DNA of 64,000 nucleotides from Chitinophaga pinensis (GTDB taxonomy: Bacteria; Bacteroidota; Bacteroidia; 2-12-FULL-35-15), in NCBI GenBank assembly GCA_945879015.1, contig CAMCUO010000001.1:42659-106658 (forward strand), in the 5' to 3' direction. The notes beneath the pieces were generated by a model. It made no database searches and was not told the origin of the DNA. It saw only the letters and a list, made by a program, of their open reading frames with translations. A program made the translations under genes and the position numbers. Below are positions 3,418 through 50,700 of the stretch, in pieces (the first letter of the stretch is position 1; each line of letters begins with the position of its first letter).

Positions 3418-3458
3418 AAAAATCCCCCATGTCTATCGCGTGGGGGATTTTTTTTTGT
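3418..3458 (+). terminator. Rho-independent terminator downstream of ftsZ
   Basis: The stem atccccca/tgggggat is followed by a T9 run. Confidence 0.75.
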
Positions 3459-5195: not shown

Positions 5196-5226
5196 ATAAA
5201 AAAACCCAGACGATAAATGTCTGGGT
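5196..5226 (-). terminator. Rho-independent terminator of groEL
   Basis: The stem acccagac/gtctgggt is followed by a T-run on the minus strand. Confidence 0.7.
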
Positions 5227-5249
5227 TTTATATTTTAATGATAATAATA

Positions 5250-6893
<1,644 letters not shown>

Positions 6894-12500: not shown

Positions 12501-14996
12501 ATGAGCAAAAATTTAGTGATAGTGGAGTCCCCTGCAAAGGCGAAAACAATAGAAGGATTTTTAGGAGAAGGATTTACGGTTAAGTCCAGTTATGGCCACG
12601 TTCGTGACCTTGCAAAAAAAGGATTTGGTGTTGATATCGAAAACAATTTCACTCCTAATTATGAAGTATCACCTGATAAATCAAAAGTAGTAAACGAACT
12701 AAAAGCATTAGCCAAAAAAGCAGAAGTGGTTTGGTTAGCAACGGATGAGGATCGCGAAGGAGAAGCTATTTCATGGCATTTATTTGAAGCATTGAACCTT
12801 TCTGAAAAGAGCACAAAACGTATTGTTTTTCACGAAATCACTAAACCTGCGATACAAAATGCGATTGCAAATCCCCGTTCAATTGATAAACATTTGGTGG
12901 ATGCACAGCAAGCGCGTAGAATTTTAGACAGATTGGTAGGATTTGAATTGTCTCCTATTTTATGGAAGAAAGTTCGTCCATCATTGTCTGCCGGCCGTGT
13001 TCAATCGGTTACTGTGCGTTTAATTGTGGAACGTGAAAGAGAAATTGTTGCTTTCAAAAGCACTTCTTCTTACAAAGTAACTGCAAACTTTATAGCAGGA
13101 AACGCGAATGTAAAAGCAGAACTTTCTGCAAAATTTAAATCGTTAGACGAAGCAAGAGCATTTTTGAAAAAGTGCGAAAATGCTGATTTTACTATCGATA
13201 GTTTAGAAACAAAACCTACAAAAAAATCTCCTTCTGCTCCCTTTACAACCTCTACTTTACAACAAGAAGCAAGTCGTAAGCTAGGTTTCTCTGTTGCACA
13301 AACAATGGTTGTTGCACAGCGTTTATACGAAAGTGGAAAAATTACATACATGAGGACGGATTCTGTGAATCTTTCTGGAACAGCCATTGATCAAGCGAAA
13401 GCAGCTATTACAGGAAATTACGGAGAAAAATATTTAAATATTCGTCAGTACAAAACTAAATCAAAAGGTGCACAAGAAGCTCACGAGGCTATTCGTCCTA
13501 CCTATATCGAAAAACAAACGGTTGATGGTGACGCAGGAGAAAAGCGTTTGTATGATTTAATTTGGAAGCGTACAATTTCATCACAAATGAGTGATGCTGA
13601 ATTGGAAAAAACAACGGTTGTGATTACAGCATCTGGAACGACTGAAAAATTTGTTGTTCAAGGTGAAGTGTTGAAATTTGATGGTTTCCTAAAAATTTAT
13701 TTGGAAGGAACGGATGATGAAGAGGATGAAAATAAAGAAGGAATGCTGCCTCCAATGAAAGTGGGAGAGCAATTAAAAATGAATGAAATTATTGCGATGG
13801 AACGATATACTCACCATCCTGCAAGATATACTGAAGCAAGTTTAGTAAAAAAATTAGAAGAACTTGGAATTGGTCGTCCATCAACGTATGCTCCAACTAT
13901 TTCTACGGTTCAAAAACGTGAATACGTTGTGAAAGAAGATCGAGAAGGAGTACAACGAAACTTTAATGTCTTGATTTTAAAAGATCAAAAAATTAATGAT
14001 GAATTAAGAACAGAAGGAACAGGAGCAGAAAAATCTAAACTTTTTCCAACAGATATTGGAATGGTTGTAAATGACTTTTTATTCAAAGAGTTCCCGCAAA
14101 TTATGGATTACAATTTCACTGCAAAAGTGGAAGAGGAGTTTGATGAGATTGCTGAAGGAAAAATTTTGTGGACAAAAATGTTGGCTGATTTCTACAAACC
14201 ATTTCATAAAAATGTATTAGACACTTCTGAAAATTCAGAGCGTGCATCAGGTGAAAGGTTGTTAGGTGTGGATCCAGTTTCGGAAAAAAATCTATATGTG
14301 CGTATTGGCCGTTTCGGACCAATGGCGCAGCTTGGCGAAGGGAATGATGAAAATAACAAACCGAAATTTTCTAGCTTGCGTAAAGACCAGCGGTTGGATA
14401 CAATTACTTTTCAGGAAGCATTGGATCTGTTTAAACTTCCTCGCGTTGCTGGAATGTTTGAAGACAAAGAAATGGTAGTTGCAGTTGGTCGTTTCGGTCC
14501 TTATGTTCGTCACAACAGTTTGTTTATTTCTTTGAAAAAAGAAGATGATCCAATGACGGTTTCTGCTGAAAGATGTGTGGAATTAATCCTTGCAAAACGC
14601 CAAGCCGAAATTGATAAATACATAAAAGTTTTTGAAGAACGTCCAGATGTTCAAGTATTGAATGGTCGCTGGGGTCCATACTTGGTGATTGATGGAAACA
14701 ATTTCAAATTACCGAAAGGCACAGATGCTCCTTCTTTAACTTTACAAGAATGTTTAGATATTGCTGCAGATCCTAAAAATGCAAGCAAGGGAAGTCGTTT
14801 CAAGAAAAAGTTCGAAAAGAAACCATTCAAACAAGCAGCAGCTAAGAAGGCTACTCCAAAGAAGAAAGCCATAAAGGGTGCTCCAATAGCGAAACTTGCT
14901 CCCAAGAAAGCAGCTCCTAAAAAAGTTGCTCCAAAGAAGCCTGCCCGTCCGGCAGTCGGGGCTGTTAAGAAAGCCACAAAACCTGCCCGTCCGTAG
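12501..14996 (+). CDS. topA: DNA topoisomerase I with a Lys/Ala/Pro-rich C-terminal tail
   Basis: The Toprim N-terminus LVIVESPAKAKTI is present, as is the active-site region with the catalytic tyrosine ITYMRTDS. The tail reads KKAAPKKVAPKKPARP. Confidence 0.95.
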   Translation: MSKNLVIVESPAKAKTIEGFLGEGFTVKSSYGHVRDLAKKGFGVDIENNFTPNYEVSPDKSKVVNELKALAKKAEVVWLATDEDREGEAISWHLFEALNLSEKSTKRIVFHEITKPAIQNAIANPRSIDKHLVDAQQARRILDRLVGFELSPILWKKVRPSLSAGRVQSVTVRLIVEREREIVAFKSTSSYKVTANFIAGNANVKAELSAKFKSLDEARAFLKKCENADFTIDSLETKPTKKSPSAPFTTSTLQQEASRKLGFSVAQTMVVAQRLYESGKITYMRTDSVNLSGTAIDQAKAAITGNYGEKYLNIRQYKTKSKGAQEAHEAIRPTYIEKQTVDGDAGEKRLYDLIWKRTISSQMSDAELEKTTVVITASGTTEKFVVQGEVLKFDGFLKIYLEGTDDEEDENKEGMLPPMKVGEQLKMNEIIAMERYTHHPARYTEASLVKKLEELGIGRPSTYAPTISTVQKREYVVKEDREGVQRNFNVLILKDQKINDELRTEGTGAEKSKLFPTDIGMVVNDFLFKEFPQIMDYNFTAKVEEEFDEIAEGKILWTKMLADFYKPFHKNVLDTSENSERASGERLLGVDPVSEKNLYVRIGRFGPMAQLGEGNDENNKPKFSSLRKDQRLDTITFQEALDLFKLPRVAGMFEDKEMVVAVGRFGPYVRHNSLFISLKKEDDPMTVSAERCVELILAKRQAEIDKYIKVFEERPDVQVLNGRWGPYLVIDGNNFKLPKGTDAPSLTLQECLDIAADPKNASKGSRFKKKFEKKPFKQAAAKKATPKKKAIKGAPIAKLAPKKAAPKKVAPKKPARPAVGAVKKATKPARP

Positions 14997-15160
14997 GCGG
15001 GACAGCTTCGCAAAAAAATAGTTTTGTTTCTTCTGTAACTTTTCGAATGAGTGAAGTTATAGAAGAAACACTTATTATTTTGAAACAACAAGCAACCAAA
15101 ATAATTTTTGTCGTCATTAATCAAAAGCTTGTATTTGAATAATTATTCGATATTTGTACG

Positions 15161-46675: not shown

Positions 46676-47929
46676 TTATTTCAATTTAAATGCTGCTTTT
46701 ACTTTTGCAACATAATCCAATTTTTCCCATGTAAACAATTCTACTTTCATTATTTTTGTTTTTCCATCAGGAGATTTAAACGTTTTAGTAATTGTTTCGT
46801 TTTTTCTTCCCATGTGTCCGTATGCAGCAGTTTCGCTATACATTGGAGTGCGTAATTTAAAACGTTGTTCAATAAAGTAAGGGCGCATATCAAAAACGCT
46901 TTCAACTATTTTAGCAATTTGTCCATCTGTCATTTTTACTTTTGCTGTTCTATAAGTATCAATAAAAATACCCATTGGCTGAGCAACACCAATTGCGTAG
47001 GAAACCTGCACCAAAACTTCGGAACAAACTCCTGCTGCAACCAGATTTTTTGCAATATGACGAGTTGCATAAGCTGCAGATCTGTCCACTTTTGATGGAT
47101 CTTTACCTGAAAACGCGCCACCACCATGAGCTCCTTTTCCACCATAAGTGTCAACAATAATCTTGCGACCAGTTAATCCTGTATCTCCGTGCGGACCACC
47201 AATTACAAATTTACCAGTTGGGTTAATGTGGTAATTGATTTTGTTGTTAAACAAATGAGCGTATTTAGGATACTTCTTTTTTACTCTTGGAATTAAAATA
47301 TCGATAATGTCTTTTTTAATTTTTGCAAGCATTTTAGCTTCAGCATCAAAATCATCATGTTGAGTTGATACAACAATAGCATCAATACGAACAGGAACGT
47401 TATTGTCGTTATACTCTAATGTTACCTGAGATTTTGCATCTGGACGTAAATATTTTATCTCTTTATTTTCTCTGCGCAATGCAGCTAATTCTATTAAAAT
47501 ACCATGCGCTAAATCCAAAGCCAAAGGCATATAATTAGCCGTTTCGTTTGTTGCGTAACCAAACATCATTCCTTGGTCACCAGCACCTTGCTCTTCTTTT
47601 TTCTTTTTGTCAACACCTTGATTAATATCTGCAGATTGCTCATGAATGGCAGATAAAATTCCACATGAGTTTGCTTCGAACATGTATTCGCTTTTTGTAT
47701 AACCAATTTTACGAATTACTTCGCGCGCAATTTCTTGAACATCTAAATATGCTTTTGATTTTACTTCACCTGCAAGTATAACTTGTCCTGTTGTAACAAG
47801 TGTTTCACAAGCAACTTTTGATTGAGGATCAAAAGCCAAAAAATTATCAATTAATGCATCAGAAATTTGATCTGCTACTTTGTCTGGATGTCCTTCCGAA
47901 ACCGATTCGGATGTAAATAAATATCCCAT
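46676..47929 (-). CDS. metK: S-adenosylmethionine synthetase
   Basis: [33 protein letters not shown] and [19 protein letters not shown] are present. Confidence 0.97.
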
Positions 47930-48049
47930 TTATAAAATTGTTTGTTTTAAGATTAGTTTAGATTTTTTAACGAGTGCTAAAGTACAATTTATTAAGTAAT
48001 TGAGAAAGAAAAATTATTTCACGAAGAGGGTTCTTTTTTCGGAGGGTAT

Positions 48050-48071
48050 CCCCCTCTCCGAGGGGGCAGGG
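48050..48071. repeat. Left 22 bp GC-rich inverted repeat flanking the DUF559 gene
   Basis: The sequence ccccctctccgagggggcaggg is the exact reverse complement of 48581-48602 and is itself hairpin-forming. Confidence 0.8.
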
Positions 48072-48105
48072 GGAGGATAATGCTATAATGGAAAGAGTAT
48101 TATGA

Positions 48106-48564
48106 TTATTTTTCTATAGTTGAATTGAGCGAATAGGTTTTCCGTTTCAAACAAATAGGAGGTTCTGTTATTCCTAACTCCGTTTCTCGTTCTTCAATTG
48201 TTATTTCTAAACACCTTATTACATTCTGAATATCTTTTAATACTTCATGATCTAGAAATCGAATGACTTTAAACCCATTGTTTTCAAGGATTTGCTGGCG
48301 TTTTACATCTTTATGATAAGCTTCTTCATTGTAATGCGATATCCCATCTACTTCAATAATTAGAAGAAGTTGCTTACACATAAAATCTGCAATGTAATTT
48401 AATACTGGGCGCTGTGGATTGAAAGTGCAGCCTTTCATTGTTCTGGCTTTAAGAGCATATTTCCAAAGACAGACTTCTGCTTTGGTCATCGTTTTTCTCA
48501 GGTCAGAAGCTCTTGGCCTTAGAACTTTATTGTATGAATATTGGTTTGATTTGCTTGCTGGCAT
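48106..48564 (-). CDS. DUF559 endonuclease-domain protein (Vsr / PD-(D/E)xK-like)
   Basis: LRKTMTKAEVCLWKYAL..., NYIADFMCKQLLLIIEVDG and FKVIRFLDHEV match the DUF559 pattern. Confidence 0.75.
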   Translation of the reverse strand: MPASKSNQYSYNKVLRPRASDLRKTMTKAEVCLWKYALKARTMKGCTFNPQRPVLNYIADFMCKQLLLIIEVDGISHYNEEAYHKDVKRQQILENNGFKVIRFLDHEVLKDIQNVIRCLEITIEERETELGITEPPICLKRKTYSLNSTIEK

Positions 48565-48580
48565 ATTCTCCGTATTCTGC

Positions 48581-48602
48581 CCCTGCCCCCTCGGAGAGGG
48601 GG
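48581..48602. repeat. Right 22 bp GC-rich inverted repeat flanking the DUF559 gene
   Basis: The sequence is ccctgccccctcggagaggggg. Confidence 0.8.
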
Positions 48603-48648
48603 ATATGCTTCGTAAAATTAATTTAATAATAAATGTTTATTCTTTTAC

Positions 48649-50700
48649 CTACCAAATTTTAACCCTAATCTTCTCTTCACGATACATCTTATCGCCTTTC
48701 TTAATATTGAAAGCTGTGTAGAACTCATCTACATCTGAAAGCGGACCGTTGATACGGAATTCAGCAGGAGAATGTACATCGCTCATTATTTGTTTTGCTA
48801 AAGAAGCATCAGTTCTGTTTACCATCCAAGCATAAGCATACGCTAAAAAGTAACGTTGGTCTGATGTATAGCCATTGTAAAGCTCCTTTGATTGTCCTTG
48901 TTTAGTTTTTTTGAAGGCTTCGTATCCCATAATTACGCCACCCAAATCTGCGATGTTTTCTCCTTGTGTATTTTCGCCCCTTACGTGCATGCTATCTAAA
49001 ACAACATATTTATTAAATTGTTCAACAATTAATTTTGTTCTTTCAACAAATCTTGATCTGTCAACTATTGTCCACCAATCTGTAAGGTTTCCGTTCTCAT
49101 CATATAAACTTCCTTGATCATCAAAACCGTGTGTAATTTCATGTCCAAATGTTGAACCGCCTATAATTCCGTACAATACAGCATCATCTGGCATACGACC
49201 TTCAAATCCTGGTACAATAATATTACATGCCGGAACAACTATTTCATTGCTTGCCGGATTATAATAGGCATTATATGTTTGTGGATACATTTCCCATTCT
49301 GATAAATCAACAGGCTTTCCGTATTTATTTATCATAAAGTTGTATTCCCATCTTTTAATATTCATCATATTTTGAAGGTAGTTATCGCGACTAATTTCCA
49401 AACTCGACATATCTTTCCATTTGTCAGGATAACCTACTTTCATAACAATTTTATTCAATTTAATCATTGCTTTTTCTTTTGTAACATCACTCATCCAAGC
49501 TAATTTTTTGATATGTTCAGCATAAATATCGCGAATGTTGTTTCCAATTTCTAATAGCTTTTCTTTCGTGCCTTTTGGCAAATATTCGTCAACATAAATT
49601 TGTCCAATTAATTCTCCTAACGATTCATTAGTTGTTTCTACAATTGCCTTCCATCTTGGCTTTTGTTCTTTAATTCCATCTAAAACAGTGGAGTAGAAAT
49701 AAAAATTTTGATTCTCAATTTCTTTATTCAAATCCTTAGCATAACTATTTAATAAAGTCCATTTTAAATAAACTTTCCATTCATTTAATTGAACTTTTTT
49801 TAGAGTTGTTTCAAGTTGTGAGAAAAATTCAGGCTGACCAACAACAACTGAATCAACATTGTTTAATCCTAGTTTTGAAAGTGTTTCATTCCAATTGATA
49901 GATGGTGTGATTTTATTTATAGAAGCAACCGACATTTTATTGTAGTTTTTGTACGGGTCTCTCAAATCTTCCATCTTTCTGGATGCCTTAGCTAGCATTG
50001 TTTCTATCGTCATTACAGATGCGGCACTTTTCTCAGATGTGCTTTTTTCTGCTCCTATTAAATCAAACATTTTTTGAACATGTTTTACATATTCATTTCT
50101 AATGTTTATCGTTCTTGAATCTGTATTGAAATAATAATCACGTTCAGGAAGTCCTAAACTGGCTTGTCCAAGTGAAACAACATATTGTGAACTTTTTTTG
50201 TCATCACGAATAACATAAAAACTAAACATTGTACGAGCATTTATTTTATTTAGTTCTGCAACAGCGCCTACTAATTCGGATGTACTTTTAATATCATCAA
50301 TTTTGGAAAATTCCTCCTTGAGTACTGTTATTCCTGCTTTTTCGATACTTACAGTATCCATTCCGCTGAAATATAAATCTCCAATTTTTTGTTTGTTGCT
50401 TCCCTTTTCTGATTTTGAATCTGCAGCTGCCGATTCGCATATTTTTTTTATAGCTTCATTGATAGTATCTTGAATGGTTTGAAAAATGCCATTGCTTTTT
50501 TCTGATGATGGAATAGGATGTTTTTTAAACCAACCATTGTTTGCGAAAAGGAAAAAGTTTTCTCCGGGTGAAATAGAGGAGTCAATGTGAGCTGTTATGG
50601 GATCAATAAACTCATCTTGAGATTTTTGATTTTCATTTGAATTGTTGCACGAATAAATGATTGTTGCAAGTACGCTAGTAAATAAAAATATTTTTTTCAT
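48649..50700 (-). CDS. M13 family zinc metallopeptidase (neprilysin / PepO-like) lipoprotein
   Basis: The lipoprotein signal TIIYSC is present. The zinc site is HEITHGFDD with the distal ligand ENIADLGG, and an NAYY motif is present. Confidence 0.9.
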   Translation of the reverse strand: MKKIFLFTSVLATIIYSCNNSNENQKSQDEFIDPITAHIDSSISPGENFFLFANNGWFKKHPIPSSEKSNGIFQTIQDTINEAIKKICESAAADSKSEKGSNKQKIGDLYFSGMDTVSIEKAGITVLKEEFSKIDDIKSTSELVGAVAELNKINARTMFSFYVIRDDKKSSQYVVSLGQASLGLPERDYYFNTDSRTINIRNEYVKHVQKMFDLIGAEKSTSEKSAASVMTIETMLAKASRKMEDLRDPYKNYNKMSVASINKITPSINWNETLSKLGLNNVDSVVVGQPEFFSQLETTLKKVQLNEWKVYLKWTLLNSYAKDLNKEIENQNFYFYSTVLDGIKEQKPRWKAIVETTNESLGELIGQIYVDEYLPKGTKEKLLEIGNNIRDIYAEHIKKLAWMSDVTKEKAMIKLNKIVMKVGYPDKWKDMSSLEISRDNYLQNMMNIKRWEYNFMINKYGKPVDLSEWEMYPQTYNAYYNPASNEIVVPACNIIVPGFEGRMPDDAVLYGIIGGSTFGHEITHGFDDQGSLYDENGNLTDWWTIVDRSRFVERTKLIVEQFNKYVVLDSMHVRGENTQGENIADLGGVIMGYEAFKKTKQGQSKELYNGYTSDQRYFLAYAYAWMVNRTDASLAKQIMSDVHSPAEFRINGPLSDVDEFYTAFNIKKGDKMYREEKIRVKIW

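Follow-up and report, generated by a model that had tools for sequence, protein, structure and literature searches.

Upstream of metK in the 64,000-nucleotide stretch of Chitinophaga pinensis DNA analysed here (the window), a gene for a small DUF559 nuclease lies between two inverted, GC-rich repeats, which we call its arms. An earlier note on this DNA had seen in this arrangement a minimal mobile cassette, possibly an invertible one, that could affect metK. The interest of the locus is a different one: the arms are, by their sequence, repeats of the BoxC/PIT triplex type, and they are paired with the DUF559 nuclease. Small Vsr-like nucleases make up the very large DUF559 family, and we know of almost no member with an assigned role. 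The pairing is reproducible. Generic triplex motifs are locally enriched 20- to 30-fold beside DUF559 genes in four phyla (Bacteroidota, Cyanobacteria, Deinococcus and Proteobacteria), and at metK the arms are better conserved than the protein's own codons. This suggests that a long-orphaned class of triplex-type repeats has a partner enzyme, and it makes both the function of the repeats and the role of DUF559 directly testable.

The arms are built around a 22-mer, CCCCCTCTCCGAGGGGGCAGGG, found at 48050-48071 on the plus strand and, as a perfect reverse complement, at 48581-48602. The window holds no third match, even when three mismatches are allowed, and 100 dinucleotide-preserving shuffles yield none. 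The earlier note had described perfect inverted 22-mers around a 152-amino-acid open reading frame (ORF), a 7-bp hairpin in each of them, and a GC content strikingly high for DNA of about 33% GC. All of this is borne out, and the arms are longer than claimed: 45 nt each (48035-48079 and 48573-48617) and 87% complementary, with a perfect core of 26 nt, TATCCCCCTCTCCGAGGGGGCAGGGG. Their GC content is 73-77%, compared to 33.9% for the window, and the only 30-mers in the window with at least 70% GC lie in the arms and at the 3' end of topA. Each arm contains the hairpin CCCCCTC/GAGGGGG followed by a mirror G-tract, and reads CCCCCTC-TCC-GAGGGGG-CA-GGGGGAG. The DUF559 gene is the sole sizeable ORF between the arms. 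The locus consists of the following parts, where L numbers denote loci from other genomes:

48106..48564, minus strand: DUF559 (Vsr-like PD-(D/E)XK) endonuclease gene, 152 amino acids (Pfam PF04480, E = 1.2e-29).
48573..48617, minus strand: gene-proximal upstream arm; its minus-strand reading is TTTTACGAAGCATAT-CCCCCTC-TCC-GAGGGGG-C-AGGGGCAG, its triplex-type core is 48577-48602 (minus strand), and the arm ends 9-12 nt ahead of the DUF559 start codon.
48035..48079, plus strand: downstream arm, inverted relative to the upstream arm; its plus-strand reading is TTTTTCGGAGGGTAT-CCCCCTC-TCC-GAGGGGG-C-AGGGGGAGG, with the triplex-type core at 48050-48075 (plus strand).
Arm hairpin plus last G-tract: CCCCCTCTCCGAGGGGGCAGGGGGAGG.
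~48020..48640, minus strand: whole indel unit of ~620 bp (boundaries within about 10 nt either way), in the order AT-rich leader, arm, DUF559, arm, trailer of ~15 nt; occupied in L010, L030+L012 and L123, empty in L120, L121 and L122.
47964..48007, minus strand: conserved 44-nt block upstream of metK, TTTCTCAATTACTTAATAAATTGTACTTTAGCACTCGTTAAAAA, outside the cassette and shared by occupied and empty alleles.

The architecture of the repeat is that of a potential triplex. A C-rich stem, a loop and the complementary G-rich stem are followed by a short loop and a second G-tract, which mirrors the first and fits the purine-motif triplet code (G.GC, A.AT, T.CG). A generic detector for such motifs (7-nt stems, at most one mismatch, the same triplet code) finds exactly the two arm cores in the 64-kb window and nothing in shuffled loci. 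As far as sequence can tell, the arms belong to the architectural class of 'potential intrastrand triplex' repeats described as BoxC, PIT elements and TMECO, which are one thing (PMC4666352). The arms do not match the E. coli TMECO pattern CCCTCNCCC-N3-6-GGGNGAGGG-N3-GGGNGAGGG; they are in the triplex class yet outside the E. coli TMECO family because their sequence differs. The folding energy of the arm as a DNA hairpin, about -7 kcal/mol, is no different from that of shuffles.

Repeats of this class have been reported in E. coli since the 1990s, with no function, origin or protein partner assigned to them (PMC4666352). TMECO sequences form a class II purine-motif intrastrand triplex in vitro and number 23 in MG1655, 29 in E. 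coli 55989, one in IHE3034 and 3610 in 262 proteobacterial genomes. They come in two types, which join into inverted doublets. Repeats of this class are plentiful in Enterobacteria, and so are G/C-rich triplex motifs of any kind in Cyanobacteria (PMC4666352). Our repeats resemble them in their three-block architecture, with a second G-rich block that obeys the purine-motif code, and in being dispersed, with conserved stems, variable loops and two types that pair as inverted doublets. They differ in their blocks (CCCCCTC..GAGGGGG..GGGGGAGG with 7-nt stems here, CCCTCNCCC..GGGNGAGGG..GGGNGAGGG with 9-nt stems in E. coli), in their AT-rich Bacteroidota host, and in that copies here bracket a DUF559 gene.

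The two types of repeat found here, CCCCCTC..GAGGGGG..GGGGGAGG and CCCCCGC..GCGGGGG..GGGGGTGG, comprise 50 and 40 distinct sequences, respectively. The base pair that follows the C-run covaries with the odd base of the mirror G-tract: 110 and 105 cases lie on the diagonal, and about 5 lie off it, with a paired stem and a non-matching base. The lengths of C-run and G-run vary too little to show covariation (205 of 256 copies are 5-5-5).

The arms are copies of a dispersed family of GC-rich repeats of 30-45 nt and not terminal repeats specific to one element. The earlier note had proposed to look for further copies of the 22-mer and of DUF559 genes with the same flanks, and for an empty metK site in related strains. 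The 22-mer does recur in many places, relatives of the gene have equivalent inverted arms, and there are clean empty sites in related species. In other species-representative genomes the exact 22-mer is found at 34 loci, spread over 14 genomes: several Pedobacter, Chitinophaga, Flavobacteriales, other Bacteroidota metagenome-assembled genomes (MAGs) and one Ignavibacteria MAG. What these loci share is a unit of ~42-45 nt, (T)TTCGGAG-NN-TAT-CCCCCTCTCCGAGGGGG-C-AGGGGGAGG. It is found as solo copies in short spacers that separate co-directional genes, as near-identical inverted doublets of ~130 nt in Pedobacter (at least 12 in one MAG), in frame within leuS in three MAGs, and on both sides of DUF559 genes. 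As for carriage by phages, the 22-mer is present in a single IMG/VR contig only.

Several copies of the repeat deserve separate mention. The leuS copies (L016 2715-2741, L003 7439-7465 and L008 3429-3455) are in sense orientation and read ...SPSPRGQGE.... They lie within a 48-amino-acid segment that is missing from the Thermus thermophilus leucyl-tRNA synthetase (1h3n), and a further stretch of leuS, APSPSGEGRGE, resembles another translated GC-rich repeat. These in-frame copies are reminiscent of the in-frame palindromic elements of Rickettsia. The 22-mer represents one half of the ~130-nt Pedobacter element. Conserved flanks and two triplex-type motifs in inverted orientation, ~27 nt from each other, make up the element, which looks like a REPIN (a doublet of repetitive extragenic palindromic, REP, sequences) or a miniature inverted-repeat transposable element (MITE); it is present at L002, L006, L009, L011, L021-L023, L025, L026, L029 and L032-L035. 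In the orthologous spacer downstream of accC, L005 has two tandem solo repeats (5219-5304), the second with the loop ACT in place of TCC, and L020 has one (6444-6473). Hence solo copies have been gained or lost.

More complex arrangements occur as well. At L049 (2886-2956 and 3387-3459) and L126 (295-374 and 821-1012) a doublet of motifs in opposite orientation lies on each side of the gene, and at L049 each doublet consists of one motif of each type. A gene flanked in this way is flanked by direct repeats of a palindromic doublet of ~70 nt, which matches the doublets of type A and type B TMECO in E. coli. At L116 (1429-1689) five tandem 58-nt units of one motif follow straight after the DUF559 gene. 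We considered a CRISPR-like array and rejected it: the 'spacers' are identical, and the array is thus a plain 58-nt tandem duplication.

In Bacteroidota, the association between DUF559 and inverted arms can be quantified. We collected 80 metagenome loci that encode DUF559 relatives at 51-89% identity, 74 of which were usable for arm scoring. The arm score rates the best inverted repeat that the 180 nt before the conserved DUF559 core can form with the 180 nt after it. It is 14 or higher in 52 of the 74 loci (median 17.5), compared to 0.3% of 699 control placements with the same geometry in the same loci (median 8, maximum 16). The density of generic triplex motifs is 1.35 per kb up to 250 nt from DUF559 and 0.069 per kb more than 500 nt away (P ~1e-30). 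The layout is uniform: a hairpin C5-N-N...N-N-G5 and, 1-8 nt further on, GGGGG(A/T)GG. The forward copy is on the upstream side of DUF559, and the reverse copy begins 14-25 nt past the core, within the tail of the ORF. The N- and C-terminal tails of many homologues are translated repeat (PLSEGAGG, IPRQRG, PAPASGG), which matters for annotation: many ends of DUF559 ORFs (...PSPRGQGE, ...IPRQRG, ...PAPASGG) are of this kind.

The type of the repeat tracks the relatedness of the DUF559 proteins. In 43 of 53 cases a protein and its nearest neighbour share the type, against 29.4 +/- 4.2 after permutation. Of the 85 intervals between consecutive hairpins, 59 hold DUF559 and no ORF recurs in the others; selection of the loci by DUF559 biases this sample. 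Among the fetched loci no other cargo gene recurs between repeat pairs.

Two loci show features of their own. At L070 (964-1471) there are three tandem units of ~178 nt, which are internally deleted DUF559 remnants that have kept both arms; they adjoin a DUF559 copy broken by an in-frame stop. At L027 a 15-nt exact direct repeat, TTTTCGGGAGGTTCA, derived from the end of the upstream gene, surrounds the repeat-DUF559-repeat module (1700-1714 and 2382-2396). It may be a duplication made at insertion, and such a duplication is not seen generally.

The pairing extends beyond Bacteroidota. Homologues were found by searching PLSDB with the DUF559 core (tblastn, 30-41% identity). Triplex-type repeats flank DUF559 in Pseudanabaena, Synechocystis, Deinococcus (three species), Sphingomonas, Qipengyuania, Azospirillum, Photobacterium and Neisseria. 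Among the first eight PLSDB loci, Pseudanabaena reaches an inverted-repeat score of 63, with doublets on both sides, Deinococcus psychrotolerans 57 and Sphingomonas 28. On two Synechocystis plasmids and in Neisseria gonorrhoeae the repeats also flank the gene, Picosynechococcus has versions with 5-nt stems, and in P. galeata repeat copies occur in the stretch around the DUF559 domain of a very large ORF. For eight more loci with 10-kb flanks, we find 9 matches at most 300 nt from the gene (1.88 per kb) and 9 matches in the 144 kb that lie more than 1 kb away (0.062 per kb; P = 1.4e-9). The pairing of DUF559 with triplex repeats looks like a general, previously unremarked rule, and we found no paper in the open-access literature that links the two.

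The three Deinococcus genes occupy sites that can be compared. In two species (L138 9968-10306 and L141 9956-10300) DUF559 lies antisense at the same site of the hpa (4-hydroxyphenylacetate) operon, and in the third (L132 465-818) it lies between paaD and paaZ. All three are flanked by triplex-type repeats.

E. coli, in which the repeats were described, has a DUF559 gene next to one of them. The C-terminus of ycjD in K-12, ...SPSP*, is encoded by CCCTCTCC...GAGGGGGCAG, a degenerate triplex-type motif. A canonical TMECO follows ~170 nt downstream, with a duplicated fragment of the ycjD 3' end in between:

L125 5205-5420 (E. coli K-12 NC_000913.3 ~1351200-1351420): ycjD 3' region.

This neighbour, TMECO #9, is one of only 23 in MG1655 and is listed between fabI and ycjD, without comment, in Supplementary Table S2 of PMC4666352. 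Only 3346 of 5426 complete E. coli genomes have the whole stretch fabI-ycjD-sapF. E. coli O157:H7 was considered as an 'empty site' for ycjD; it carries a different island with genes for a TetR protein and a resistance-nodulation-division (RND) efflux system, and is uninformative.

The history of the metK copy can be read from related species. A search for empty sites via close MetK homologues failed because metK synteny differs in relatives with 92-93% identical MetK. Occupied and empty alleles were found via the less conserved M13 peptidase encoded on the other side of the cassette. Three other species have the cassette at this very site: L010 (peptidase 93% identical), L030+L012 (81%) and L123 (73%). 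Clean empty sites, with neither DUF559 nor repeat, are present at L120 (83%), L121 (82%) and L122 (78%). Here the conserved metK upstream block follows 16-18 nt after the peptidase stop codon. None of the three empty alleles has a repeat, so the arms travel together with the gene.

In the peptidase tree, occupied alleles are interspersed with empty ones: the empty L121 is sister to the occupied L030+L012, and the occupied L123 lies outside the clade of the other six. Divergence of DUF559 follows the host tree, with synonymous divergence (dS) of 0.52, 1.03 and 1.9 and a ratio of nonsynonymous to synonymous divergence (dN/dS) of 0.04-0.07. The economical reading is a single old insertion in an ancestor, between the stop codon of the M13 peptidase gene and the metK upstream block, after which a functional gene was passed on vertically and cleanly lost at least three times. 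Repeated gains, specific to this site, are less likely. Under either history, the ~620 bp including the arms behave as one unit. The arms are its most conserved part. Across the four species, 25 of the 26 core positions are invariant, compared to 81-85% of first and second codon positions, 38% of third positions and 23-40% of positions in leader and trailer.

The age of the metK cassette, its vertical inheritance and the strong purifying selection on it mean that it has not been recently mobile. Hence the proposal of a minimal mobile or selfish cassette stands in part. The unit is compact and delimited by inverted repeats, and it has clean empty sites, but its arms are dispersed repeats and the metK copy has not moved in recent times.

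To explain the pairing, we propose, tentatively and by analogy, a partnership of nuclease and repeat that works like that of RAYTs (REP-associated tyrosine transposases) with REP sequences and REPINs. The DUF559 nuclease would recognise the repeat when it is folded into a hairpin or triplex, probably while the DNA is transiently single-stranded, and would nick or cleave it. Cleavage would then spread or maintain the repeat family, that is, the solo copies, the doublets, the internally deleted derivatives and the arms of the nuclease's own gene. The metK copy would be an old, resident and probably domesticated member of this family that is not actively hopping. The deleted derivatives with both arms at L070 and the stand-alone doublets fit this picture of autonomous and nonautonomous elements.

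The analogy to the REP/REPIN-RAYT system has clear limits. In both systems a vertically inherited enzyme gene under purifying selection has inverted, short structured repeats on both sides, and the repeat is also dispersed over the genome as singlets and inverted doublets. The enzyme, however, is not an HUH/Y1 (IS200/IS605-like) transposase but a Vsr-fold PD-(D/E)XK nuclease, and the repeats lack the GTAG/CGTC head and have an extra mirror G-tract. MITEs and the palindromic elements of Rickettsia are likewise short structured repeats, with deleted derivatives that keep their ends, in MITE fashion, and in-frame copies in genes. The derivatives at L070 that keep both ends and the in-frame copies in the essential gene leuS resemble them. 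Unlike for MITEs, there is no DDE transposase here and no systematic target-site duplication.

The nuclease itself has known relatives. E. coli Vsr, 3hrl and Caulobacter VsrA (PMC12907096) belong to the same family as the protein at metK, in whose homologues acidic and histidine positions are conserved; the gene described here differs in that it is embedded between structured repeats and has no adjoining cytosine methyltransferase gene. A homing endonuclease with the Vsr fold, from a group I intron (PDB 3r3p), has been listed together with Vsr and DUF559 (PMC3424549). It is a precedent for a Vsr-fold nuclease that serves a selfish element, and it shares with the metK cassette a patchy distribution and clean empty alleles. 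In contrast, the gene at metK stands by itself, outside any intron or intein, the empty allele has no obvious arm-like target, and inheritance is vertical instead of by repeated homing.

A number of observations weigh against the proposed partnership. The apparent link between DUF559 and the repeats consists of co-location and covariation only, and the covariation has just two states, so that shared ancestry of two subfamilies could yield it. For TMECO sequences, Holder et al. (2015; PMC4666352) detected no link to either gene classes or mobile elements. E. coli genomes without the ycjD stretch still match the repeat-bearing part of the query in a similar number of places (2-6 against 3-5). 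The metK copy has not moved over a divergence with dS up to ~1.9. The Bacteroidota loci represent one DUF559 clade and include some near-duplicate contigs; 22 of the 74 have no clear inverted repeat, and only 36 of the 80 pass the strict generic detector. Among the loci with 10-kb flanks, those from Sinorhizobium and Methylobacterium have no triplex motif. The orientation of the arms relative to the gene varies across phyla, and the Neisseria arms are direct repeats. Finally, the longest direct match of the outer flanks has a median of 6 nt at 50 loci, the same as in controls, and the two metK junctions resemble each other just weakly, in AT-rich sequence; there is no sign of a systematic target-site duplication.

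The partnership can be extended to a broader but more doubtful claim: throughout bacteria, DUF559 proteins would supply the enzyme partners that BoxC/PIT/TM 'intrastrand triplex' repeats have been missing. They would form a second symbiosis of nuclease and repeat, independent of that of RAYT and REP, in which a Vsr-fold enzyme reads hairpin-plus-third-strand DNA and copies or maintains the repeats together with its own cassette.

The main rival of the partnership is control or insulation at the level of RNA, which we consider unlikely. The arms of the transcript would pair, and a long stem would enclose the DUF559 ORF. This stem would be cut, for example by RNase III, or would block translation, such that a potentially toxic nuclease is kept low and the transcripts of peptidase and metK are insulated; repeats elsewhere would be generic structural elements. 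The predicted minimum free energy fold of the 603-nt cassette transcript does close with the arm-arm stem (-159 kcal/mol, z = -5.6), and the short spacers between the three co-directional genes, like the position of the upstream arm so close ahead of the start codon, fit the idea. However, the arms are kept as a specific family-consensus sequence, beyond mere complementarity, and there are no compensatory double changes among the four orthologues. Repeat pairs of mixed type exist, as do the direct repeats of Neisseria and solo copies and doublets without a partner arm. Although upstream neighbours are co-oriented at 41 of 49 loci, this rate is near the genomic baseline, and earlier work summarised in PMC4666352 found no promoter or terminator activity of E. 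coli PIT elements. Alternatively, DUF559 could be a host repair nuclease that processes the hairpins or triplexes of the repeats, for example at stalled forks, without spreading them; the presence of its gene among repeats would serve autoregulation or be a matter of history. Strong purifying selection and vertical inheritance agree with such a guardian. So do the triplexes that the E. coli repeats form in vitro, their association with genomic instability (PMC4666352), and the behaviour of a Caulobacter DUF559 protein as a DNA-damaging, Vsr-like endonuclease (PMC12907096). A guardian nevertheless leaves unexplained why the arms are missing from empty alleles and come and go with the gene, why they bracket the gene so tightly and symmetrically, and why internally deleted derivatives retain them. 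We regard it as distinctly unlikely.

The association could also be passive, if small horizontally acquired genes, DUF559 among them, accumulate or survive at fragile, recombinogenic triplex repeats. TMECO loci are hypervariable among E. coli strains (PMC4666352), and the incomplete distribution of fabI-ycjD-sapF points in the same direction. But the empty metK alleles have no repeat, so that no pre-existing repeat served as a landing pad there. DUF559 fills most hairpin intervals and no other ORF recurs in them (in a sample chosen by DUF559 and therefore biased), and repeat type tracks protein clade, which makes passive association improbable. We give hardly any credence to a phase-variable switch in which recombination between the arms flips the DUF559 segment. 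The earlier note had raised this possibility, and perfect inverted repeats around a gene do invite it, yet all four orthologous cassettes share one orientation relative to metK, no recombinase gene lies inside or adjacent to the cassette, and the published enrichment of the DUF559 family is a model prediction, not observed flipping. Two further candidates were rejected. For an integron gene cassette, the attC cores RYYYAAC and GTTRRRY are absent from the sequence of arms and flanks, and for a classical insertion sequence or transposon with terminal inverted repeats, the 50 loci show no fixed-length target-site duplication.

The protein between the arms is a clear member of its family. Its PF04480 match scores 102.8 bits against a cut-off of 20.6, with residues 16-118 aligned to profile positions 4-103 of 109, and the solved 'endonuclease-like protein' PDB 3hrl matches with E = 2.4e-15. 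The conserved core comprises approximately residues 1-128 (48181-48564), and the C-terminal tail is poorly conserved. Across 34 homologues E71, D73, H77 and D86 are invariant and D60 is nearly so; going by general knowledge of the fold, these may be active-site positions. No cytosine methyltransferase gene adjoins DUF559.

The neighbouring genes are metK (46676-47929), which starts ~105 nt past the outer edge of the nearer arm, and the M13 peptidase gene (48649-50700), which ends 32 nt before the other arm. Both are on the minus strand, as is DUF559. The 44-nt block upstream of metK is probably its promoter or 5' untranslated region. In the four occupied alleles, 39 of its 44 positions are invariant, and it is also present in the three empty alleles. 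Because the block lies between cassette and metK and is kept in both kinds of allele, the cassette sits upstream of the likely metK promoter and outside the leader. The idea of a cassette in the metK leader that affects metK expression thus finds no backing, and no riboswitch or terminator was detected either: upstream of metK neither an S-adenosylmethionine (SAM) riboswitch nor another Rfam cis-regulator matches at the gathering threshold, and no intrinsic terminator or convincing sigma-70 promoter was detected in or around the arms. Across 20 further repeat-rich loci no Rfam family matches the repeat. The best match to the arm by E-value, whalefall-1 RNA, was rejected: it scores 15.9 bits against a threshold of 37 and is not reproduced at those 20 loci.

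Besides the arms, the window has only two GC-rich spots, and both are unrelated to the repeat family. At 14931-15012 lies the 3' end of topA, which is rich in lysine and proline and has a GC hairpin at the stop codon; at 3424-3446 lies an ordinary GC-rich terminator, a hairpin plus T-run. A DUF805 RNA motif (Rfam RF03081, 84 bits), which is likewise unrelated to the repeat, is present at L005 3750-3817 in a Bacteroidota MAG.

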